A stretch of 38,200 bases of DNA from Escherichia phage sortregn. The position numbers and the translations under genes are program-made. The notes below the pieces were generated by a model. The model was not told the DNA's origin. It did no database searches and worked only from the letters and a program-made list of their open reading frames with translations. Below are positions 1,538 through 36,451 of the stretch, piece by piece (the stretch's first letter is position 1; the number at the start of each line of letters is the position of its first letter). The stretch lies in the sequence record MN850588.1; one strand, 5' to 3'.

Positions 1538-3580
1538 TTAAAAACCCTCATTCATGAATACTTTGTTAGTGATAACGTCTTTACCCTTGCCGATCTTCCG
1601 GTGGGTAACTTTCAGTGGGGCCATGAAGTACGGCGCGAAGGCGAGGACCTCCTGGGGCGTCCGTAGCTTCTTGATGTCGGCCCGTTTCTTTCCGTCCAGT
1701 ACGTGCTTAAGGATCCCATTGTGGAGCCATTCCTTTTTCGCCTGTGGGCTATCGCTACCGGGCCAGAATACTTGCCACGCCACGAACTGATCGCCGTCCT
1801 TCTCCAACTCGTACCGGAAGGCGATCCCCCCAGTCCCTCGCGCCAATTCCAGACGGAAGCCCCTCACGTTGTAGTAGTCGTCCCTGCTGTACGTGGTCCG
1901 GCTTAAGTTCTTGTTCGGATCTACGAGCGAGTTCCCGCAGCAGCGGCAGATCCTGGCTACGATGTCGTTTTGTGCGCCGCATCCCTTCTGTACCACCTTC
2001 CGCCCGCTGGAGTCCTTCCAGTCGTCGCAGGTGATGAACTGGAAAAAGTGTTCGCAGCGTTCGCCAGTGTCGGGATCGACGTAGCGGCAGCGTCGGGCGT
2101 GTTTGCCGTTTAGCGTCGGGTGGCCCGCCTTGCGACACTTCGGACAGTCTAACTCTAATTCTCCTTTGCTCTCGTCTGCGCTGTGCTGGTATGCCTCCAG
2201 CAGCGGGGAGAAATACAGGGATCCGAGTTCGTCAAGCGTCCCGGCATAGTCGAGGACCAGGTGATCCTCCTTCGTCACCCCGGCGGCGATGTGGAACGGC
2301 TTAAGGATGCGCATACCACGGCCTAAAAGCTGGGTTAGGAGCGTGAGGGATCCGATCTTCCGCAGTATCACGGACGTGTCCCAGAACGGGACGTTAACGC
2401 CAGTCGTTAGGGCGTTAACCTGGAATATAAATTTGATCTCCCCGGTATTGGCGCGGCGCAAAATGTCCATGCGCTTCTTGCCCGTCGTGTCGTCCGTGAT
2501 GATGGCGTAAGGCGTACCAGGGGGAAGGGCCTCCGCCGCCTGTTTGCAGTGTCTCACGCCCGCACACGTCACTAACACGCCGTTCCTGTGCTGGGCGATG
2601 GCGTATACCTCCGCCATGATCTCATGCGTGAGCTTTTTGTCCTTAAGGATCGCCTTTTGCATGGCGTCCATTTCGGCGTCCGTGAACTCCTTAATGCCAT
2701 CCTCGCCGGACGATCGCCACTGGTCGAGGTTGTAGTGGAGATTGGAGATCCCGAAGTGAGTCGGAACAACCGCGCCGACGCTTACCAGGTATTCCGTCGA
2801 GATCTCGCATACCTTCTTACGCCAAAATCCGGGCTGTTCGAGGTCTGGCTGGATGATGGACTCCACGCCACGGTATGGCGTCCCGGTGTAGCCAATAATG
2901 CGGAGTTCCTTCCCGTAGACCTCGCGGGCGCGTTGCTGGAATGTGCGGATAATGATCGTATAGCTGGAGCGACCCGCCTCGATCATCTCCTCGTAAGTCT
3001 CGCCCTTGTGCTCGCCGATAATGGTCGGCTCGTCGAAGCCGTCCAGGATGATCTCCCCGGTTTTCTCGTCCCGCAGGTACTCCGGGACCACGCGCTCCTG
3101 TGAGCGGATCAGGTCCTCAATGTTGACGTGATGGCATTCATCGATCAGCAGGAACAGCGGCGCGTAATGGGCGAGTGCCTGACCTGGGCGGAGTCCTCCG
3201 ATCACTGTACCCTCGGAGCCGACCACGATCGGGAAGTGTGCAGACTTGCGGCCCAGGCTGGCGCAGTAGATCGAGGAGTTCACGCCGAAGTTTTTCAACT
3301 CCTCGAAGTCCTGATCGATGATCTCCCCCTGGCGGGACAGGATCATGGCAGGGAAACCCATATCCCTGATCCGGCGGGCCAGCATGGAGATCATGATGGT
3401 TTTACCCGCACTCACGGCGGCGTCCACAATGACCGGGCCAGGATAGCGACGGATGGCCTCCGCGCAAGCCTCATACGCGACGAACTGGTGATCGTATGGT
3501 GTAACGGGCATATCTCCCAGGGCGCGGAGAATCGCGTCCCGGTCGAGCGCTTCGATCTGTTTCTCCAATGTCATTAACAT
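1538..3580 (-). CDS. SF2 DEAH-box DNA helicase with C-terminal zinc-ribbon region
   Basis: 680 aa ORF; Walker A AAVSAGKT, motif II LLIDECHH, motif III YTGTP, motif VI QLLGRGMR; cysteine clusters CPKCRK, CRCCG. Confidence 0.8.
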   Translation of the reverse strand: MLMTLEKQIEALDRDAILRALGDMPVTPYDHQFVAYEACAEAIRRYPGPVIVDAAVSAGKTIMISMLARRIRDMGFPAMILSRQGEIIDQDFEELKNFGVNSSIYCASLGRKSAHFPIVVGSEGTVIGGLRPGQALAHYAPLFLLIDECHHVNIEDLIRSQERVVPEYLRDEKTGEIILDGFDEPTIIGEHKGETYEEMIEAGRSSYTIIIRTFQQRAREVYGKELRIIGYTGTPYRGVESIIQPDLEQPGFWRKKVCEISTEYLVSVGAVVPTHFGISNLHYNLDQWRSSGEDGIKEFTDAEMDAMQKAILKDKKLTHEIMAEVYAIAQHRNGVLVTCAGVRHCKQAAEALPPGTPYAIITDDTTGKKRMDILRRANTGEIKFIFQVNALTTGVNVPFWDTSVILRKIGSLTLLTQLLGRGMRILKPFHIAAGVTKEDHLVLDYAGTLDELGSLYFSPLLEAYQHSADESKGELELDCPKCRKAGHPTLNGKHARRCRYVDPDTGERCEHFFQFITCDDWKDSSGRKVVQKGCGAQNDIVARICRCCGNSLVDPNKNLSRTTYSRDDYYNVRGFRLELARGTGGIAFRYELEKDGDQFVAWQVFWPGSDSPQAKKEWLHNGILKHVLDGKKRADIKKLRTPQEVLAFAPYFMAPLKVTHRKIGKGKDVITNKVFMNEGF
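1823..1833 (-). repeat. CTGGGGGGATC 11-mer copy (sense strand of helicase gene)
   Basis: Exact match read on minus strand; frame-checked against helicase residues T583-G-G-I586. Confidence 0.85.
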
Positions 3581-3645: not shown

Positions 3646-4464
3646 ATGGCGATCTACAAAAAAGAGGACGTTCTCGCGGCGATGCCCGGCAAATGGGAAC
3701 AGGCGCTCCTCGATCTTTGTGGCTGGGACCGCAAGGCGTTTAACGGCAATCATCAACCTTGCCCGATCTGTGGCGGGACGGACCGCTTTCGCTGGGGCCA
3801 TAAGCAACAGACGAAGAAGGCGGAGGGCTTCGGCTACTGTTCCGGCTCCTGTGGCGGCGCTCGTGATGGCATGTTTTGGTTCATGACCAGCCGATCGCAG
3901 CCGTTCAACGAGGCGATCAACGACCTGGGCGACTGGATAGGCGGACTCACCCCGGAGAAGCGGGAAACCATCGTCAAGGAGGCGCGGAAGTATGCCCGCC
4001 AGCAGGATAAGCCCGCGCAGGACTGGGAACTCACCCCGGAGGACGTGGACAAGATCATGAGCAAAGGCACGATGCGCGACGGATTCCTGTATGTTCCATG
4101 CGCTCGTCCACTGGGGGGATCCCTGGGGCCGTGGTGCAACGTGGCGAAGATCGGCTCCGACAGGTCCGTGGTGTTTGCCGCTGGTGGCCCGACGTGGGGC
4201 GCGGTAGGTCTGATCCACCCAGTGCCAGACGCTCCGGTGTATCTGGTGGCGGATCCGGTCCATGCGGTGAACGTGGCGGCGCGAGGGGAGGCGGAGGTCT
4301 GGCTTACGTTCCGGCCTATGAACGCGGTCCAGGCGTCGGCGATATATGACGGCGATCGGGAGATCCGGTTCGTCTACACTGACCCGGACGAGGTTTTCCT
4401 GTACGGCTACGAGAGGACGGGGAGGCCATGCGTCGGCGGGCATCTTGCCGGGGCGTTCGGGTAA
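3646..4464 (+). CDS. DNA primase (zinc-ribbon plus TOPRIM-like region)
   Basis: HQPCPICGGTDRFRW and GYCSGSCGG match the primase zinc-binding ribbon of P4-alpha-like primases; later DGD acidic motif; GGAGGG SD upstream. Confidence 0.65.
   Translation: MAIYKKEDVLAAMPGKWEQALLDLCGWDRKAFNGNHQPCPICGGTDRFRWGHKQQTKKAEGFGYCSGSCGGARDGMFWFMTSRSQPFNEAINDLGDWIGGLTPEKRETIVKEARKYARQQDKPAQDWELTPEDVDKIMSKGTMRDGFLYVPCARPLGGSLGPWCNVAKIGSDRSVVFAAGGPTWGAVGLIHPVPDAPVYLVADPVHAVNVAARGEAEVWLTFRPMNAVQASAIYDGDREIRFVYTDPDEVFLYGYERTGRPCVGGHLAGAFG
4111..4121 (+). repeat. CTGGGGGGATC 11-mer copy
   Basis: Exact match; frame-checked against primase residues L156-G-G-S159. Confidence 0.85.
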
Positions 4465-7152: not shown

Positions 7153-7411
7153 GACTTCGCGCCGGGAGTTATGGGAGGCGGCGCAAGCCGCCGAACTGGA
7201 CGGCATGATCAGCGCAGTCTCCCGCGTGTTCGGCAAGGAGGCGATCGCCGACATATCGATCGAGACGCCGGACGGCGAGATGTACCTGAACAACCCGGAC
7301 CCGCACCACTGGCGCGTCGTGCCTGGGACTAAAGGCGGAAAGAACGCTCTCAAAGACGCGATCGCCGACACCAAAAACCGGAAGCACCTCAAAGGGGGAT
7401 CTCGTGGGTAA
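7136..7411 (+). CDS. hypothetical protein
   Basis: 91 aa ORF overlapping neighbours. Confidence 0.4.
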   Translation: MVIARKTSRRELWEAAQAAELDGMISAVSRVFGKEAIADISIETPDGEMYLNNPDPHHWRVVPGTKGGKNALKDAIADTKNRKHLKGGSRG

Positions 7412-7796
7412 AGTAACAGCGAAGATTATCGGATGGACTGACGAGCAGGACGCGGAACTGGTTCGCCTGGCTGGAACCATGCCAGCGCCGGACCTGGCGA
7501 AGAAGATAAAACGCAACTTCCGCCAGATGCAGGTCCAGGCGTCGAAGCTGGGGATCTCCCTGGCGTACCGCAGGACGTACACGCAATGGACAGCGGAGGA
7601 GGACCGGAAGCTGGTCCGCTTCTGGGAGGATAAACTGACCCCGGAGGACGTGGTGGAGATCGCAGAGACTACGGGGATCTATGAAGTGACCCGCGACGAA
7701 CTGACACACGAGCACGTCGCGACCTGGCTCGACAAATCGCGCCCGGCAGTACGCGGACGCCTGGCAAAATTCAAGAAAGAGGGGAAAATAGCATGA
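7404..7796 (+). CDS. putative DNA-binding protein with two W-x-x-E-(E/Q)-D helix motifs (GcrA/Myb-like)
   Basis: GTG start after GGGGG SD; GWTDEQDAELVRLAG and QWTAEEDRKLVRFW resemble GcrA N-terminal / Myb-SANT DNA-binding repeats. Confidence 0.45.
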   Translation: MGKVTAKIIGWTDEQDAELVRLAGTMPAPDLAKKIKRNFRQMQVQASKLGISLAYRRTYTQWTAEEDRKLVRFWEDKLTPEDVVEIAETTGIYEVTRDELTHEHVATWLDKSRPAVRGRLAKFKKEGKIA

Positions 7797-10034: not shown

Positions 10035-10374
10035 CGGTCTGATCCTCGTGGTTAGTGTGCGCCGGAGTAGCGCGGATTTTTTTCAGGAATGGGATCTTTT
10101 CGCTGGCCCAGTCGAGCGCCGTCTCTACGCCCACGTAGCCCAGGAACACCGAAGCCAGATAGCCCCAGGTGCCATGATCGACCCCGAAGAATGATAAAAT
10201 ATTATTCATACCGAAAGCGACAGCAGCGCAGATCGCCCCGCCGCTGACAATATCGCGGAACGGGTGGCGCAATTGCCAGTGACGGAACACAGCCACCGAT
10301 GCCGCGATGAACGAATAACCTAACTCAACGCGGTATAGCTGGAACAATTGCCATAGCGTCGTATGCTCAGACAT
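10021..10374 (-). CDS. holin, lambda S-like
   Basis: ORF 10021..10440 (TTG) with start moved to ATG 10374; TM helices and ASVFLGYVGVE resemble lambda S; overlaps endolysin start. Confidence 0.7.
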   Translation of the reverse strand: MSEHTTLWQLFQLYRVELGYSFIAASVAVFRHWQLRHPFRDIVSGGAICAAVAFGMNNILSFFGVDHGTWGYLASVFLGYVGVETALDWASEKIPFLKKIRATPAHTNHEDQTDGKI

Positions 10375-10472
10375 TGGAGGGATCCCTTTTAACAAGTGAG
10401 TGAACGCTAAAAGGGTAGCATGTGGAATCAAGGGCCGCAAAGCCCCTTTTCAGATGAAAGGTTAAGTAATTG

Positions 10473-11766: not shown

Positions 11767-12420
11767 TTAGCAATTCGTGCTATTCGGATAAAGATACTCG
11801 CTCAACCGGGCCACCAGCGGCTCGTCTGGACCGAACTCAAACAGCCCGCCGTCGTTCTTGATCGAGTGGTGGATCTCCGCCAGTAACGTCTCCGCCCGCT
11901 GGAGCCTGGACGCCGCCGCGTTATCATGCCCGATCAGCTTCGTGATCTCCTCCTCCAGATCAGCGCCGAGCGCCGACGTCGCCCAGTGTTCGGCATACTC
12001 GCGATCCTTCAACAACCGGATCAGGGCCAACACGTCCGACTCGATACCGACAGTCGGGCCAGGCTGGAGCCGTGGCTGGATCTCGTCGAGCGTCTGCTGG
12101 GTAGCGTTCAACGTCCGGCGGATCTTGTCCTGTTCGGCCTTGCTCAGGTCCAGGATCAGCGGCGAAGCCGGGAGGCCATTTAACCAGGCGATCAGGTCGT
12201 CGTAAGGCATGACGGAATAAGCCTTCTCCGACGCGTACCCGGTGATCCGCCAGTCAGTGGTCGAACTGTACGCCTCGGAAATATCATCCTCCCGCAATTC
12301 GCGATAGACGATCTCAGCGCGACCGTTGTCGATCTTGCTCAGGCTCTCGATCAGCGTCTCCGGGATGTGGATCACTTCTTCGCCATTCTTAACGGCGGTT
12401 ACTGCGACATATCTGATCAT
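11767..12420 (-). CDS. hypothetical protein
   Basis: ORF 11767..12447 with start moved to ATG 12420 (GAGGAAAGAGAG upstream, ATGA overlap with upstream gene). Confidence 0.5.
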   Translation of the reverse strand: MIRYVAVTAVKNGEEVIHIPETLIESLSKIDNGRAEIVYRELREDDISEAYSSTTDWRITGYASEKAYSVMPYDDLIAWLNGLPASPLILDLSKAEQDKIRRTLNATQQTLDEIQPRLQPGPTVGIESDVLALIRLLKDREYAEHWATSALGADLEEEITKLIGHDNAAASRLQRAETLLAEIHHSIKNDGGLFEFGPDEPLVARLSEYLYPNSTNC

Positions 12421-12851
12421 CTCTCTTTCCTCATGGCTTGTTTGCATTGTAAAGCGGCGAGGGCCATCTCCGGGCCAATCTCGACGCCTGGGGGGAACCC
12501 TGTTTCCGTGGTCGCCAGCTTCGAACGATCCACCTTAAGGTCCCGTAATTGTCCGGCCCGTTCCATTTGTCCGGCGTGTCGGCAGAGATCCAGCAGCTTC
12601 TTACGATCGACGCCGGGGCAGTCCCAGAACGCCGCGAATATTTGCTCCGATGGTCGCAGGGCGCAAAAAGCATTGCGCGTTTCAACCGTCGGCAGATAAG
12701 GATCCATTCTCCCCTGTTCTATCGCCTCAATGATCGAGGGATCGGTGGAGCGGATCTTCTCCAGAATCTCCAGGCGGCGCTCCATTGCCGTCTTGCGTTT
12801 AACCGTGGCCCGAAGTGGGGCGGCAGGTTTTGAATCATCAAACAGTGACAT
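12417..12851 (-). CDS. hypothetical protein, first gene of leftward operon
   Basis: ORF 12417..12977 with start moved to ATG 12851 after GGAGGG. Confidence 0.5.
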   Translation of the reverse strand: MSLFDDSKPAAPLRATVKRKTAMERRLEILEKIRSTDPSIIEAIEQGRMDPYLPTVETRNAFCALRPSEQIFAAFWDCPGVDRKKLLDLCRHAGQMERAGQLRDLKVDRSKLATTETGFPPGVEIGPEMALAALQCKQAMRKER

Positions 12852-12991
12852 ATTGCCCTCCGTTGTGTGGAAATCAATATTACATAACGTTACCATGATG
12901 TAAAGCCCAACCGTGATAATAATTGACTTTACAGTGGTAACAAGGGCGGGTAACATTGCGACCAGTAACGCAACCATGAGGTGATTAAACA
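12852..12991. promoter_or_regulatory. divergent promoter/operator region with GGTAAC repeats
   Basis: 140-bp intergenic region between divergent operons; GGTAAC at 12936-41 and 12949-54, AGTAAC at 12964-69, GTTACC at 12888-93; sigma70-like hexamers TTGACT 12923-28 and GATAAT 12914-19. Confidence 0.45.
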
Positions 12992-14656
12992 GTGATTGAC
13001 TACGACGACGACAACCAGCCAGATCGCAGCGAGCAGGAGATCAGGGAGATGATCCGCCCAGAGCCGACGCCTCTCGAACCCGTCCCGGACTGGATGGGCC
13101 AGACCCCGGAGCCGACGGACGAGGAGGTGGCCCGGCAGATGGCGATCGAGGCTGAACGCGAAGCGGCAGAGCTGGAGTATTACCGATTCAACGACGACAA
13201 CCCGGACGATCACGCCTACGAGGTCGCGGTGAAGGATAACGAGGTGACGCTGGTCAAGCGCTCCGAAATGACCGAGGAGGAGCGGGCGGAGGCTTACCTG
13301 GCGAAGCAGCGCGAGAAGGACCGCAAGGCGATCGCCGACCTGCTGGCAGACGAGCCGGACCCCCTGCTGGAGGAACTGAACAAGGGCAACGAGATCAAGC
13401 CCGTTAATTACGTGATCCAGAACCTGATCCCGGAGCGCTCCGTGGGCTTCCTGGTCGGCGAGTCCGGCGCTAAGAAAACCTTTGCGGCCCTCCATATGGC
13501 CCTGTGCGTGGCGCGTGGCGTTCACTTCGGCGGCTTGCCAGTACGACAGGGATCCGTGATGTACTTCGCGCCGGAGGATGCGAACGGCGTCCGTGAGCGT
13601 TACGCGGGCTGGAAGTACACTCAGAACAAGAACGAGAACTTGCCTAATTTTTGGGTACTGGGCCAACAGGTCCCACTCCACCGCGAGGATCTTCTCCGCA
13701 AGTTCGGCGCGAGGATCAAGGACTCCGCATTTTTCCAGGCGAACCCCCTCTCCCTGATCGTGATCGATACCTACAGCGCCAACTCCGCCGGGCAGAAGGT
13801 CGGACAGACGCCAGTCAAGAAGGACGGGAAGATCGCGGAATGGGTAGGCGGGCGCGACTTCGACGAGAACGACAATAACGTGGCGGCGATCCTCATGAAG
13901 AACGCGGCAGACCTGGCGGACATGCTGGAGTGTGCCGTGATGATCATCCACCACACCGGGAAGGACACGGAGCGCGGCGGGCGCGGCGCGTCGGCTCTCA
14001 AGGCTAACGCAGGTTTTGAGGTCCTCGTGAAGAAATGCGCGAAGGACCGGGAGCTTTTCATCATTGAGCACTCGAAGGCGAAAGGCTGTGCGCTGTTACC
14101 GCCGCGAGCCATGCGCACGAAGGCGGCGAAACTCCCGCCGGACCTGGTGAAGATGAAGCGCGACGCGCTGGCCCGCATGACCGGACTCGACAACGAGGCG
14201 AAGAACAACCCGGCAGCGTGGGAGATCGGCGACAACCTGGGGACGCTGGTCGTCGTGAACAAGGTCGAGCCAGTCCCGACCGATAAGGCCGAGGAGAAGG
14301 ACGCGGGCGAGGAGAAAGGTCGCACCAAGCAGGAGGAACACGCGCTCCAGCTTTTGGCCTACGTGGTCGAGTACAACCACGATCGCGCCAGCAAGAACTA
14401 CAGGACGCCGAAACTCACAAAGGCGGCGCTCCGTGAGTGGGCGAAGAACTTCGCGGACCCGTCGCTGGATAAGCATCAATTCGCCCGCGCGTTCAAGTAC
14501 GCCACCGAAAAAGCGATGGTGATCAAAATGGCCGGGGATCAGACGCTAACCGCATCAACGGAAGCGCCCGCACTCCTGGGAGGGATCCGCGAACAGCAGC
14601 CACGATCCACGGACTGGAAACCAACCTCCGGCGGAGGTGATCTTGATGACTTTTGA
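12992..14656 (+). CDS. RecA-like replicative ATPase/helicase (AAA_25-type, RepA/DnaB-like)
   Basis: 554 aa; Walker A GESGAKKT, Walker B IVIDTYS, IIHHTGK motif; GTG start with GAGGTGA SD. Confidence 0.65.
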   Translation: MIDYDDDNQPDRSEQEIREMIRPEPTPLEPVPDWMGQTPEPTDEEVARQMAIEAEREAAELEYYRFNDDNPDDHAYEVAVKDNEVTLVKRSEMTEEERAEAYLAKQREKDRKAIADLLADEPDPLLEELNKGNEIKPVNYVIQNLIPERSVGFLVGESGAKKTFAALHMALCVARGVHFGGLPVRQGSVMYFAPEDANGVRERYAGWKYTQNKNENLPNFWVLGQQVPLHREDLLRKFGARIKDSAFFQANPLSLIVIDTYSANSAGQKVGQTPVKKDGKIAEWVGGRDFDENDNNVAAILMKNAADLADMLECAVMIIHHTGKDTERGGRGASALKANAGFEVLVKKCAKDRELFIIEHSKAKGCALLPPRAMRTKAAKLPPDLVKMKRDALARMTGLDNEAKNNPAAWEIGDNLGTLVVVNKVEPVPTDKAEEKDAGEEKGRTKQEEHALQLLAYVVEYNHDRASKNYRTPKLTKAALREWAKNFADPSLDKHQFARAFKYATEKAMVIKMAGDQTLTASTEAPALLGGIREQQPRSTDWKPTSGGGDLDDF

Positions 14657-14911
14657 CCGGGGCGTGTGTTGGTAACGAGTAACACCCCCCCTTATAGGGG
14701 GGGATGTAACGTGTTACCGCAACCCACAAGGCCGAAAACATAGTTTTTTATGTGTACTGTTACCGACAAGCGACCGTAATCAAATCAATCATTTATGTGT
14801 GATTCGGTAACGGGGAAAGTAGCGAATCGGTCGCGGGGAAATCGGGGGGTAAAAATCGGGGGTGACCCCCGACAAAATCCCCGCCAAATAATCATTGATA
14901 AGTGATGCGAA
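14657..14911. promoter_or_regulatory. repeat-rich non-coding region, candidate replication origin/regulatory region
   Basis: 255 bp non-coding after replicative ATPase gene: C7-TTATA-G7 hairpin 14685-14703, six (G/A/T)GTAAC sites, TTATGTGT twice, three AAATCGGGG-like repeats, GGGGG-TGA-CCCCC palindrome. Confidence 0.4.
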
Positions 14912-15100
14912 ATGAGCGACGATAACAACGTTATTTTATTCCCCAGACGGACACCGATCGGAGAGGTTCAACCAGTACGATCGAACGTCTGGATCGAGCG
15001 CTTCGGAATGTGGAATTACTTCCTGATGGTAGCGACAACCATCGGCGCGATCGTGGTCGGACTGGCGGCGATCGTGTTTAACATGCTGGGCCTGATGTGA
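14912..15100 (+). CDS. small membrane protein
   Basis: 62 aa ORF with one C-terminal hydrophobic helix. Confidence 0.4.
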   Translation: MSDDNNVILFPRRTPIGEVQPVRSNVWIERFGMWNYFLMVATTIGAIVVGLAAIVFNMLGLM

Positions 15101-15328
15101 GGCCCGTCACGACGACGAGGAAACGAGGAGATGATGATGAATGACGAACACGGCAAGAAATCCAACGTAGCGGACGTCTCGCATATGTATGTAGGCCCGA
15201 ACCAACGCGCCTCACTGCTGGAGAAGGCGTTCGAGATGTTCAGAGCGGCGGCGTCGTGATCCTGGACTCGTCCGTGGTCGAATGGTCCGAAGTGGAGGCA
15301 TACCGCCCGGCAAAGTGAGGGCCGGGAC

Positions 15329-15339
15329 CTGGGGGGATC
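15329..15339 (+). repeat. CTGGGGGGATC 11-mer copy
   Basis: Exact match, third reading frame relative to codons (T-W-G-D-R in track ORF). Confidence 0.8.
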
Positions 15340-15425
15340 GCCAGGCGGAGCGGCCTCCCTACTACGTGCAGATCAATAACCGCGTAGTGACCCCGGCGGA
15401 GTTCCACCGCCAGAAGCAGGAATTT

Positions 15426-15554
15426 ATGAGGGGCGCGGTGATTGTAGTCCCACCGGACGAACCAACGTTCCCGATCGGCGAGATATGTCGCGGGATCCTG
15501 ATGATGTTCGGGCTATTCGCCCTGCTGTGGTTCGTGCTTACCTTCTTAAGATAA
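15426..15554 (+). CDS. possible small membrane protein (42 aa)
   Basis: Internal ATG of ORF 15282..15554 preceded by AGGA; hydrophobic C-terminus; start uncertain. Confidence 0.3.
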   Translation: MRGAVIVVPPDEPTFPIGEICRGILMMFGLFALLWFVLTFLR

Positions 15555-15619
15555 CGCTTGCATGATGTACGCCCCGGCGATATGCTGGGGCCGTTTCCAC
15601 CCACGAGAGAGATCGAACA

Positions 15620-16258
15620 ATGTCAATATTCACTTTCATTAATCGCAAACTGGGCCGTTTCAAGACGTGCCGGACCTGCAAGGATAAGCACCCTTGCGGC
15701 TTCGGGGAATGGCCTTCGATGTTCTTCATGTGCGACAAGTGCCAGAACAAGACGCTGGAGGAGCTATTCGAACCGGGACGCCTTAACCGCCTGACGATGG
15801 TCCACCAGACGGAGGAACAGATGGCAGAGTCCCGCCGCCGTCTGGGGCCGTTGATCGACAGCCTGGTGAGCCAGCAGCGCCAGAGCAAACAAACCGCAGC
15901 CCAGACCCAGGCAGCGAAGGCCGCGCAGTATCGCGACCCGCGATCGGTGGCAATGGCCCGCCAGATGGCGCACGACCCACGCCCGGCGGCTCGTGGTACG
16001 CAGCAGGATCCGATCTCGGACCCGATGCACCTCCTCAACCCGTTAAACCCGCTCTCCCCAGTGTCTCCGCTCAACCCGCTGAACGACTGGGACGACAGCA
16101 GCCACCGCCACCACGTCGCGCCAGCCATGAGCGAGCCGACGGAATGCCACACCACCAGCCACTCCTCCGGCTATGAGTCCAGCAGCAGCGACTACAGCAG
16201 CAGCAGCTACGACAGCGGGAGCGACTCCTCCAGCTACTCGTCCGGGGGCTGTGACTGA
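15620..16258 (+). CDS. zinc-ribbon protein with Pro/Leu repeats and Ser/Tyr/Asp-rich C-terminal tail
   Basis: CRTCKDK...CDKCQNK four-cysteine ribbon; LNPLNPLSPVSPLNPLN; tail SSSSDYSSSSYDSGSDSSSYSS encoded by short AGC repeats. Confidence 0.55.
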   Translation: MSIFTFINRKLGRFKTCRTCKDKHPCGFGEWPSMFFMCDKCQNKTLEELFEPGRLNRLTMVHQTEEQMAESRRRLGPLIDSLVSQQRQSKQTAAQTQAAKAAQYRDPRSVAMARQMAHDPRPAARGTQQDPISDPMHLLNPLNPLSPVSPLNPLNDWDDSSHRHHVAPAMSEPTECHTTSHSSGYESSSSDYSSSSYDSGSDSSSYSSGGCD

Positions 16259-16554
16259 TGGCGATGGACAAGGACCGCAGGGTGGGCCGCACGAAGGCGG
16301 AAGCGCAACTCCTGAAACTCAAGCTGTACAAGGGGCCGGAGTGCAAGGTCCACGGCGGGAACTTCACCCGGTACACGTCAAACGGCGCTTGTGTGCTGTG
16401 CCGTAAGCTGGAGGCCGACACGACGAAGGGCAAGAGCCGGGGCTATATCGCCAAGAAGCGCGACACGCTGGCGTTTAATCACCCGGTTTCACCCTGGCCC
16501 ATAACCGCCGAGAATATGCACCTGTGCCCGGATCTCTCGTTCAAGCGAACTTGA
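16258..16554 (+). CDS. zinc-ribbon protein
   Basis: 98 aa; CKVHGG...CVLCRK four-cysteine motif; ATG overlaps previous stop. Confidence 0.5.
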   Translation: MAMDKDRRVGRTKAEAQLLKLKLYKGPECKVHGGNFTRYTSNGACVLCRKLEADTTKGKSRGYIAKKRDTLAFNHPVSPWPITAENMHLCPDLSFKRT

Positions 16555-16630
16555 TCACGCTTCCGTAACCGCCGATAATCCTCCGCGTAACCCTGTGACA
16601 CTCAGGCGATAAACGGAGGATTTTTTCATC
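16501..16630 (+). promoter_or_regulatory. candidate late-operon control region upstream of terS
   Basis: Direct repeat ATAACCGCCGAGAAT (16501) / GTAACCGCCGATAAT (16565), third CGTAACCC at 16586, GATAAT hexamer 16574-79. Confidence 0.35.
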
Positions 16631-17185
16631 ATGGCAAACGAACAGAACCTTAAGAAGGGGAACCGCTTCTCCAAAGAGAACCAGCCGGAGCGACGCGGCA
16701 GGGCGAAGCAGAACCGGACGTTACTCCTCGAAGCACTCCGCAAGGTTCGGATCAAGGAGGCCACCGGGCGCAAGGTCGAGGACATCGATCCAAACACTGG
16801 CGAGGTGAAGGTGAACAGCGAAACGGGCGAGCCGATCATGGTGGACGAGTTCGTGGAGGTCCCGCTCACGGAGGACATGTTCATCCAGCGAGCGATCCAG
16901 ATGGCCCTCGTAGACGGTTCCATGATGCGCGACATCATGAGCCGATTAATCCCCTACACCAAGCCGACCAGCCCGACCTATTGCTTTGAACTGACCGGAT
17001 CCACCCCGTCCGAGCGTATCACCGAGATCGAGGACCTGGTGGCAGCGGGAGAGCTTCCGTTCGACGCGGCGGAGTCTATGGTGAAGATGATCCGCCACGG
17101 CGCGGAAGTGTTCGAAATGTCCGAAATGGTCAAACGACTGGACGCACTGGAGGCCCGACTGAATGGCGAAGCCAAAGACGAATAA
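16631..17185 (+). CDS. terminase small subunit (P22 gp3-like)
   Basis: N-terminal KKGNRF motif as in P22 gp3; GGAGGA SD; upstream of TerL. Confidence 0.55.
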   Translation: MANEQNLKKGNRFSKENQPERRGRAKQNRTLLLEALRKVRIKEATGRKVEDIDPNTGEVKVNSETGEPIMVDEFVEVPLTEDMFIQRAIQMALVDGSMMRDIMSRLIPYTKPTSPTYCFELTGSTPSERITEIEDLVAAGELPFDAAESMVKMIRHGAEVFEMSEMVKRLDALEARLNGEAKDE

Positions 17186-17597
17186 ACTCCCGCCGGACAC
17201 TTACGGCAGACTGGAGGCGCTGGGCCTGAAATGGTTCACCGCCTCCCCTTACCCTTATTTCATCGTGTGCTTTGACCCGCAGGACGAGGAGATGGTGGCG
17301 AAGCTGGGCGAATGCTTCCCGGACTGGAACCGCGAGAAGCCGATCCAGCAAGGCGTCGCCATTGAGTACCACGCCGCCGACGTTAAGCTGGTGTTCGTAG
17401 GCGTCCGCCGGGGCCAATACTGGCGGACGACCATCGTCCACGAGATCGTCCACGTTAAGAACTACATCGGCGACACGCTGGGGATCGAGTGGGACGTGAA
17501 CAACGACGAGCCGGAGGCTTACTTCGTGGGCTGGCTGTTTAACATGATGGAGCAAACCTTCCAGGATCTGGGCTATGGCAAAAAATCGAAAGGATAA
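17163..17597 (+). CDS. hypothetical protein with HExxH motif (possible zincin-like)
   Basis: 144 aa ORF between TerS and TerL; HEIVH followed by acidic EPEAYF. Confidence 0.45.
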   Translation: MAKPKTNKLPPDTYGRLEALGLKWFTASPYPYFIVCFDPQDEEMVAKLGECFPDWNREKPIQQGVAIEYHAADVKLVFVGVRRGQYWRTTIVHEIVHVKNYIGDTLGIEWDVNNDEPEAYFVGWLFNMMEQTFQDLGYGKKSKG

Positions 17598-35979: not shown

Positions 35980-36177
35980 TTAGCGCGGCAGGTCGAGCCG
36001 AGCCTGTAAAACGCCCGCGTAAGCCTTCATCACGTCCAACTGTACGACGAGGAGACGCTGTTCCGTAGGGTTAACTTTCGCGAACCCCGGCGAGTTAAAA
36101 ATGAATTGCGACAGTGCCGTGATCTTGCCTTCGAGATCGGCCTTTTCGATGCGGACGCGTTCTAAAAAGTCAGTCAT
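35980..36177 (-). CDS. hypothetical protein, downstream partner of HTH gene
   Basis: ORF 35980..36195 (TTG) with start moved to ATG 36177 after AGGAG; 8-nt overlap with HTH gene. Confidence 0.4.
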   Translation of the reverse strand: MTDFLERVRIEKADLEGKITALSQFIFNSPGFAKVNPTEQRLLVVQLDVMKAYAGVLQARLDLPR

Positions 36178-36388
36178 GGTTAACTCCTGTTTCAATCAGA
36201 TCCGCGATCGAGACGTCGAGCGCCTTCGCGATGCGGCATAGGTTAGTAACAGATGGCAATTCATGCCCGTTTTCGTAGCGGCTCAACTGATGCGGGATCA
36301 TGCCGATTCGCTCCGCTAATTCTTTTTGCTGGATGCCTTTCGCTTCGCGGACTTGCTTCACGAGGCAAACGGCTTTTAATTCCGCCAT
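36170..36388 (-). CDS. XRE/Cro-family helix-turn-helix transcriptional regulator
   Basis: ORF 36170..36403 with start moved to ATG 36388 after AAGGAG; QQKELAERIGMIPHQLSRYENG HTH signature. Confidence 0.7.
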   Translation of the reverse strand: MAELKAVCLVKQVREAKGIQQKELAERIGMIPHQLSRYENGHELPSVTNLCRIAKALDVSIADLIETGVNHD

Positions 36389-36451
36389 GTTCGGCTCCTT
36401 CATTGGTTAACGTCTCCGTGATTATTCATTAAAGCGTTATGCAAATCAAAA
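36389..36451 (-). promoter_or_regulatory. candidate sigma70 promoter for HTH cassette
   Basis: On minus strand TTGATT, 17-bp spacer, AATAAT upstream of the HTH gene. Confidence 0.4.

Follow-up and report, generated by a model that had tools for sequence, protein, structure and literature searches.

The Rep proteins of Staphylococcus aureus pathogenicity islands (SaPIs) carry a C-terminal winged helix that binds iterons of 5-6 bp lying immediately downstream of rep. There are 6-12 such iterons, arranged in sets opposed around a central element, and their specificity differs between related elements (PMC9371898). SaPI Rep is the closest published system to the locus described here, which consists of the repA gene of Escherichia phage sortregn (MN850588.1) and the two noncoding regions that flank it. 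The whole stretch of DNA that was analysed, called the window below, is a Murrayvirus genome of 38,200 bp (GC 59.3%), complete or near-complete. The hexamer GGTAAC clusters in both flanking regions, over predicted divergent promoters upstream of repA and around a palindrome downstream of it. We propose, with a probability of roughly 0.6, that the GGTAAC sites (more generally GG-TAAC-R) are iterons for a predicted winged helix of RepA, which would act at an origin of replication downstream and in self-repression upstream.

The likeness to SaPI Rep is that one polypeptide would serve as helicase and initiator, a function that we infer for RepA, and that short iterons lie 3' of the rep gene. The two systems differ in several respects. 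SaPI Rep is a superfamily 3 (SF3) AAA+ protein, whereas the phage RepA is of RecA type (AAA_25, RSF1010-RepA-like). The centre of the SaPI origin is a long AT-rich tract, whereas here a pyrimidine/purine palindrome, GC-rich and with a small AT loop, takes that place. The present locus also has a second cluster of putative iterons, which overlaps promoters, and the two winged helices have no detectable sequence relationship.

P4 carries short octamer iterons in two separated clusters, ori and crr, both of which are needed in cis. In its alpha protein, as in pRN1 ORF904, the helicase is followed by a C-terminal winged helix, which in P4 alpha binds the origin (PMC2777425). A helicase followed by a winged helix and two separated clusters of sites are what the present locus has in common with P4. 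However, alpha combines a DnaG-type primase with an SF3 helicase, whereas the phage encodes its primase separately and has a RecA-type helicase. Iteron word and spacing are also different, and promoter repression is not implied for P4 in PMC2777425. The pRN1 origin is a stem-loop directly 3' of the rep gene, and its structure, not its sequence, is conserved among relatives (PMC4234260). A stem-loop origin 3' of the replication gene, along with a C-terminal winged helix, is the feature that links pRN1 ORF904 and phage BIP-1 to the proposal made here. The pRN1 stem-loop, however, is ~100 nt long, has no identified iterons and belongs to an archaeal system with a prim-pol plus SF3 protein. RSF1010 RepA has a similar helicase core but lacks a DNA-recognition domain and relies on RepC. 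The phage RepA would thus work like SaPI Rep, P4 alpha and pRN1 ORF904 while standing outside their family, because its core is of the RecA type and not SF3.

The initiators of iteron plasmids such as pPS10, F and P1 bind the origin repeats and also a site at their own promoter, and so repress themselves. We propose the same autoregulatory logic for the phage RepA, but the Rep_3 proteins, with their WH1-WH2 architecture, are not helicases and read iterons of 17-22 bp. In SV40 and the papillomaviruses, inverted penta- or hexanucleotide sites around a palindrome, next to an AT-rich tract, assemble two helicase hexamers of large T antigen or E1. The origin overlaps the early promoters in these viruses, and the initiator represses its own transcription. 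These are eukaryotic viruses, however, with SF3 helicases and an unrelated origin-binding fold. The principle itself is already established in other systems. What the present locus adds is another class of helicase, an orphan winged helix, sites placed in two regions and a natural series of specificity switches. We found no published work on the regulation or replication of these podoviruses of E. coli, Salmonella and Klebsiella, which are isolated in phage-therapy and biocontrol screens, and the proposal would give them a first map of origin and control region.

GGTAAC clusters in the two regions flanking repA

The window contains 15 copies of GGTAAC. Shuffles give 10.1 +/- 2.9, and the genome as a whole thus has no excess. 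Seven of the 15 fall within 395 bp, namely the two noncoding stretches that flank repA. The remaining eight are all in coding sequence, and the other 18 intergenic regions of at least 40 bp contain none. When both stretches were shuffled with dinucleotides preserved, the hexamer had a mean of 0.52 copies and a maximum of 4, and 0 of 5000 shuffles reached 7. Of 5000 shuffles, 30 had some hexamer with 7 copies; after low-complexity words were dropped, 0 of 1000 did. With about 6.5% of the genome noncoding, the enrichment has a binomial P of 2e-4, even with a spurious open reading frame (ORF) hiding one site. The clustering is non-random.

The initial annotation of this DNA had described four GGTAAC-type sites upstream of repA. 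Three of these are exact copies; the site at 12964 reads AGTAAC, and the one given as 12888 begins a base later, at 12889. The clustering that it described in 14657-14911 stands, with four exact copies at 14671 (+), 14713 (-), 14759 (-) and 14806 (+), plus AGTAAC at 14678 and TGTAAC at 14705. The chance rate that it assumed, one copy per 500 bp, is wrong and about five-fold too high. About one copy per 2500-3800 bp is to be expected, and against this rate the clustering is stronger rather than weaker. Its expectation of enrichment in noncoding over coding sequence is borne out by the counts above, and a consensus promoter scan confirms the overlap with promoter hexamers that it had described.

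The upstream sites lie in a 140-bp gap that separates a divergent gene of 144 amino acids (aa) on the minus strand from repA on the plus strand. The promoter scan gave 4 hits where 1.2 were expected. P_R, the predicted promoter of repA, is overlapped by sites in its spacer, on its -10 hexamer and just past its start, and P_L, which is predicted to drive the 144-aa gene and the leftward operon, by one site in its spacer (Table 1). The same gap holds a 17-nt direct repeat, TAACGTTACCATGATGT (12885-12901) and TAACGCAACCATGAGGT (12966-12982). The first copy contains the box TGATGTAAAG, and a similar box recurs just before the ribosome-binding site of repA. This box may be the site of a conserved factor, perhaps the conserved 144-aa protein.

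Downstream, an imperfect palindrome starts 15 bp past the repA stop codon. Its core is a perfect stem, CCCCCCCT (14685-14692) and AGGGGGGG (14696-14703) around TAT, and the palindrome folded as DNA has an energy of -16.9 kcal/mol (z = -4.2). The six sites in 14671-14811 are inverted in orientation about the stem at 14685-14703, a layout that recurs in all 18 relatives described below. Beyond the palindrome come the 14759 site, an AT-rich stretch with an IHF-like box, the 14806 site and G-rich repeats, in this order. We propose the palindrome as the centre of the origin. A scan for intrinsic terminators found none where 3.6 were expected, which indicates that the palindrome is not a canonical terminator. 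An Rfam scan of 12300-15400 returned sub-threshold chance hits only and no known RNA family. A further stem at the distal edge of the region, TCGGGGGT/ACCCCCGA, has a T-run on the minus strand only, which is terminator-like for leftward transcription, and is kept in some relatives only.

Some resemblances were followed and set aside. An extended context, TGTG-N6-GGTAAC, is present at three of the downstream sites in the window. It is not kept in the Sortsneviruses, and we make no claim for it. Likenesses to Tus/Ter, DnaA-box and OmpR sites gave no match on inspection and were dropped; host-factor sites would in any case not account for switching that is specific to each phage.

The hexamer differs between phages at conserved positions

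We assembled the same locus from 18 other phages, using published genomes, IMG/VR contigs and Logan/ENA contigs. They encode RepA homologues of 51-90% identity, and most relatives were compared over the locus with flanks of +/-1.5 kb. The layout is constant. The gap upstream of repA measures ~140 bp, and the distance from the repA stop codon to an invariant ATCATTG box is 232-246 bp. In every phage, the top hexamer of both regions is a word that contains TAAC and is found in both regions. Copy numbers of the phage-specific hexamer range from 4 to 13 over the 18 relatives. For 16 of these, the top nnTAACn word has 6-13 copies, a count that at most 1 in 1000 shuffles reach.

The word itself varies. 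It is GGTAAC in the window, P0004, P0005, IME279 and L013; GTAACC in KMB41, L009, L012, P0013 and P0017; GTAACG in P0015 and P0016; AGTAAC in P0008; TTAACG (CGTTAA on the other strand) in IME_EC2/sortsyn, P0018 and P0019; and ATAACAT in ST231. When the words are aligned on TAAC, variation is limited to the two bases before it and one or two after. Between phages, the hexamer switches together at both regions, and the positions of the sites are kept while word and orientation change. Upstream, the relatives have 3-4 sites, of which one lies in the spacer of P_L; the others fall in that of P_R, at its -10 hexamer and at about +1. Downstream, they have 2-3 sites per arm of the central stem, usually inverted, with more sites beyond, and nearly all hold their own variant at the 14806 position. 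The initial annotation had suggested a common DNA-binding regulator for the early promoters and the origin-like region. These conserved, co-switching clusters support that idea, and of the two options that it left, repressor or initiator, the initiator fits best.

Other elements of the locus are conserved alongside the sites. The central stem is perfect in all 18 phages and 7-10 bp long, with a left arm that is 70-100% pyrimidine, and it comes in 12 different sequences. Pairing that is kept through compensatory changes across 12 sequences argues for a selected structure rather than a selected sequence. A segment of 68-88% AT occupies the position of the IHF-like box in all 18 phages. At the place of P_R, all 18 relatives have the same arrangement of a -35 hexamer, 17 nt and TAnnnT (read by eye), and the P_L -35 box, TGATGTAAAG on the plus strand, is invariant. 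The 16- and 17-nt spacers of these two predicted promoters fall within the 16-18 nt of sigma-70 promoters. The ATCATTG sequence is the core of the box AATCATTGATAAGTGATGCG (14890-14909), just upstream of the next gene (ATG at 14912). All 18 phages have this core unchanged, and its distance from the repA stop codon is fixed; the box may be a promoter or a translational element.

The same plan is found with another word in a more distant contig (L023), which is Serratia-phage-like and has a RepA that is 37% identical. The word here is ATCCCT. It occurs four times shortly before repA and five times at 100-250 bp past the gene, which makes nine of the ten copies in 4.6 kb. The downstream ATCCCT sites surround a large (~70-bp) pyrimidine/purine palindrome. 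In this contig, which resembles Serratia phage ChibiTotoro, the ATCCCT sites and the palindrome at 3112-3411 lie inside a called ORF of 99 aa. The ORF is probably spurious, because it contains these elements.

The predicted winged helix of RepA changes with the hexamer

Phages sortsyn and ST231 use different words and have closely similar RepA proteins. The N-terminal region is 98% identical between them, the core 95% and the tail 81%, and aa 448-512 are only 42% identical. A scan of DNA identity along the two loci finds three divergent islands, which are the promoter gap, the codons of this domain and the downstream region. They are parted by blocks of 92-100% identity, except for a shorter block of tail codons at 72-85%. 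L013 and L012 show the same island pattern.

We then compared the 13 pairs of phages in which the helicase core is at least 90% identical. In five pairs the domain is at least 81% identical and the motif distance is at most 0.19. In the other eight, which comprise four independent switches, the domain is at most 66% identical and the motif distance is 0.43-0.61. Hexamer and winged-helix domain switch in a coordinated manner, and the signal comes from closely related backbones. The motif-tracking segment, as the alignments suggest, is the C-terminal winged helix of RepA itself, and it is on this co-variation of domain and sites that we base its proposed binding to the iterons.

Two sets of words were predicted from the protein alignment before the DNA was inspected. 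P0004 and P0005, which have the domain type of the window, carry GGTAAC. P0018 and P0019, whose core is of a different type but whose helix RTDFFHAFEHATK is also that of IME_EC2, carry the same CGTTAA. The variable residues lie at the start of the third helix, the one that usually serves for recognition. Two lineages pair Gln496 with G at -2 although their domains share only 54% identity, and a change of Arg499 to His goes with a change of G to T at -1, also in two lineages.

The core of RepA belongs to the AAA_25 family (aa 133-265 and beyond; Pfam E=1.3e-25, above the cut-off), and its best sequence match in the PDB is RSF1010 RepA, 1g8y, a RecA-type protein (E=0.007). The Walker A motif GESGAKKT, the Walker B motif IVIDTYS and the downstream motifs HHTGKD and RGAS are invariant in 26 homologues. 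RepA is accordingly classed, from its sequence, as a predicted RepA/DnaB-like hexameric helicase of RecA fold. AAA_25 is the sole Pfam hit of RepA, and no superfamily 3 core of the D5_N/Pox_D5 type was found. The acidic, variable aa 1-130 have no Pfam hit, to a primase domain or otherwise, and the zinc-ribbon primase is a separate gene (3646-4464). RepA has a helicase ATPase core and a predicted DNA-recognition domain in one polypeptide. The single predicted winged helix and the sites of 6-7 bp, versus 17-22 bp, set it apart from the WH1-WH2 proteins of Rep_3. A profile search with the winged helix found only three representative clusters among 1.84 billion proteins. A search with the C-terminal 130 aa alone found no homologues; those used here were found with the full-length query.

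Two further observations concern the C-terminal part of RepA. The protein ends in an acidic tip, ...GGGDLDDF (14633-14653), of which the last Phe is nearly invariant among homologues. This tip may be comparable to the C-terminal tip DDDIPF of SSB, which recruits replication partners. In IME_EC2, repA is split into ORFs of 515 aa and 47 aa (L002 2650-2802) because an A is missing from a run of A just behind the predicted recognition helix, and the sortsyn gene is intact at 562 aa. The split is probably a sequencing error; otherwise it would be a real truncation that removes the wing.

Table 1. Genes, predicted promoters, hexamer sites and structural elements at the repA locus of the window
Feature	Position	Strand	Remarks
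144-aa gene	12417-12851	-	First in leftward operon; phrog_30497
P_L, predicted, sigma-70-type	12877-12904	-	-35 TTTACA 12904-12899, 16-nt spacer, -10 TAATAT 12882-12877
GGTAAC	12889-12894	-	In 16-nt spacer of P_L; forms palindrome TAACGTTA together with adjacent ATAAC
P_R of repA, predicted, sigma-70-type	12928-12956	+	-35 TTTACA 12928-12933, 17-nt spacer, -10 TAACAT 12951-12956
GGTAAC	12936-12941	+	Within P_R spacer
GGTAAC	12949-12954	+	Covers first four bases of P_R -10 hexamer
AGTAAC variant (one mismatch)	12964-12969	+	About +2 to +7 of P_R
repA	12992-14656	+	554 aa; AAA_25 core, acidic N-terminal region, predicted C-terminal winged helix; phrog_2850
RepA winged-helix codons, predicted	14327-14554	+	aa ~446-521
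Predicted recognition helix KHQFARAFKYATEK	14471-14512	+	aa 494-507; third helix
Imperfect palindrome, 48 bp	14671-14718	.	GGTAAC at both outer ends; inner AGTAAC 14678 and TGTAAC 14705
GGTAAC	14759-14764	-	65 bp downstream of palindrome centre
IHF-consensus-like box AATCAATCATTTA	14783-14795	+	In AT-rich stretch; weak assignment
GGTAAC	14806-14811	+	112 bp downstream of palindrome centre; position conserved
G-rich repeats AAATCGGGGG x2, then stem TCGGGGGT/ACCCCCGA	14839-14872	.	Distal edge of region

A model for RepA and its alternatives

In the model that we propose, RepA would be initiator and helicase in one, with its winged helix binding the hexamers. The downstream cluster (14671-14811) would be the lytic replication origin, where the inverted sets of sites may bring RepA to each arm of a centre that melts or extrudes easily. 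With RepA on both arms, the same protein could load itself there, as a ring, to become the replicative helicase. The separate zinc-ribbon primase, SSB and host polymerase would complete the replisome. On the upstream cluster (12889-12969), RepA would silence its own gene and the leftward operon once it had accumulated, and RepA bound there could pair with the origin 1.7 kb away.

The winged helix of RepA could also bind these sites without the downstream cluster being an origin. The cluster would then serve in 3' transcriptional control or termination, in looping or in copy control, and the origin would lie elsewhere. Such roles would suit a palindrome located precisely where the repA transcript has its 3' end and upstream sites that clearly overlap promoters, and GC skew is uninformative on the origin. 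Yet the palindrome's stem is followed by a T-run on neither strand, and the terminator scan was empty. Inverted sites, palindrome, AT-rich stretch and more sites 3' of a rep gene also match the known helicase-initiator origins, and the genome showed neither a second initiator nor a further cluster of iterons, so we regard this account as unlikely. We give a little less credit to the idea that another phage protein, encoded outside the compared loci, reads the sites, while the divergence of RepA is hitch-hiking or unrelated. The +/-1.5 kb scope of most comparisons leaves room for such a protein, and sortsyn and ST231 also differ in several small early genes, which have diverged or are absent. 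The GcrA-like/D5-like protein (7404-7796), which the initial annotation had listed as a candidate binder, differs between them at 13 of 130 residues; despite their different motifs it is still 90% identical, and we do not retain it. The terminase small-subunit candidates, the two genes that precede the large terminase, share 94-97% identity in the same pair and are rejected on that ground, and the flanking genes tested do not follow the motif but vary whether or not it changes. In favour of RepA, all four independent switches coincide with replacement of the same 65-aa segment, on both sides of which the RepA sequence is conserved, and the residue-level matches fall in the predicted recognition helix.

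Operator-repressor control of the lambdoid kind would assign the sites to a helix-turn-helix (HTH) protein (36170-36403) or to the 144-aa product. An HTH_3 protein is indeed encoded, and the sites overlap -35 and -10 elements of divergent promoters, as such control would have it. But this Cro/CI-like protein, again a candidate of the initial annotation, is 98.7% identical between the window and ST231, whose motifs are GGTAAC and ATAACAT. The sites, moreover, are asymmetric hexamers of variable orientation and do not fit a Cro/CI immunity region. The 144-aa protein is 95% identical across the motif switch between P0013 and P0008 and 87% identical between the window and KMB41. Since it does not change with the motif, we rejected it as the binder; its AlphaFold2 model is of low confidence (predicted local distance difference test score 63) and gave no fold match. 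This classical rival is largely refuted and, in our judgement, very improbable. It is harder still to credit that there is no dedicated binding at all, and that the sites arise from a composition that is promoter-like or richer in AT, from chance or from a host factor. One site does form part of a -10 hexamer, and the noncoding regions have ~48% GC versus 59% for the genome. Local dinucleotide-preserving shuffles nevertheless never reach the observed count, and neither composition nor chance fits conserved positions with a coordinated switch of variant at both regions. Different words occur among phages that were isolated on one E. coli K-12 strain, and this phage-specific switching on one host rules out a host factor. 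The reading is refuted statistically and comparatively.

Several points weigh against the RepA model. Sortsne and P0023 have a looser mix of degenerate, weakly enriched sites in place of a single word. Over all 18 phages, motif distance and domain identity are correlated weakly (Mantel r=0.22, P=0.02). Domain identity levels off at about 50-55%, and one hexamer can be read by different domains. The residue rule is imperfect, as ST231 retains Arg499 yet has A at -1. The winged-helix call is itself a prediction from an alignment of 24 sequences, and the domain has neither a Pfam nor a PDB sequence match. At the DNA level, the 12949 site is partly the -10 hexamer of P_R, the strict IHF consensus occurs at its position in 4 of the 18 phages, and GC skew merely follows gene strand and so does not indicate an origin. 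For proteins beyond the +/-1.5 kb flanks, the comparison across a motif switch covered one genome pair, and another factor that co-varies may have escaped it. Finally, RepA binding, origin firing, repression and self-loading of the helicase are all steps that we infer.

If the RepA model is true, recognition of its own origin by a helicase, through a C-terminal winged helix and short iterons, would extend from SF3 helicases to a RecA-type core. A bolder version, which we offer tentatively and rate somewhat below an even chance, covers the Murrayviruses and Sortsneviruses together. They would share an undescribed self-loading helicase-initiator, in which a RecA-fold helicase is joined to an orphan winged helix that reads a re-programmable 7-bp nnTAACn word. 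Swaps in the recognition helix (Gln496 with G at -2; Arg or His499 with G or T at -1), together with about 10 matching site changes in the two clusters, would yield orthogonal replicons, and the palindrome would be the site of loading or melting. At least six hexamer variants on near-identical backbones would be material for a recognition code and for orthogonal replicons.

Neighbouring genes and database annotations

Salmonella phage Lumpael is 98-99% identical to the window across most of its length, and its annotations bear on this locus. Its gp15, the homologue of the 144-aa gene, is annotated from an ATG at window position 12977, which would swallow the gap with its promoters almost entirely. 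The short start at 12851 is served by the ribosome-binding site GGAGGG, and the short form is annotated in four relatives. The gp15 start is over-long and hides the promoter region. The Lumpael label 'putative primase/helicase' is unsupported, as the primase domain is absent from the RepA homologue. In phage vB-Eco-KMB41, the RepA homologue (L003 1185-2840) is labelled 'cobalt-zinc-cadmium resistance protein', a clear misannotation. The present analysis corrects all three database entries.

Next to the proposed origin, 15242-17571 is a 2.3-kb block of small early genes that has no megablast match in Lumpael, where ~5.2 kb, including a 'putative recombinase', takes its place. The block is a mosaic replacement adjoining the proposed origin. 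Two other sets of clustered words occur in the window. CAATTGC, among the most clustered heptamers, has three of its four genome-wide copies within 150 bp (~10269-10420). The most strongly clustered short words of the genome are the CAGCAGC/AGCAGC repeats at 16096-16250, which are probably a coding stretch of low complexity, rich in Gln, Ala and Ser.

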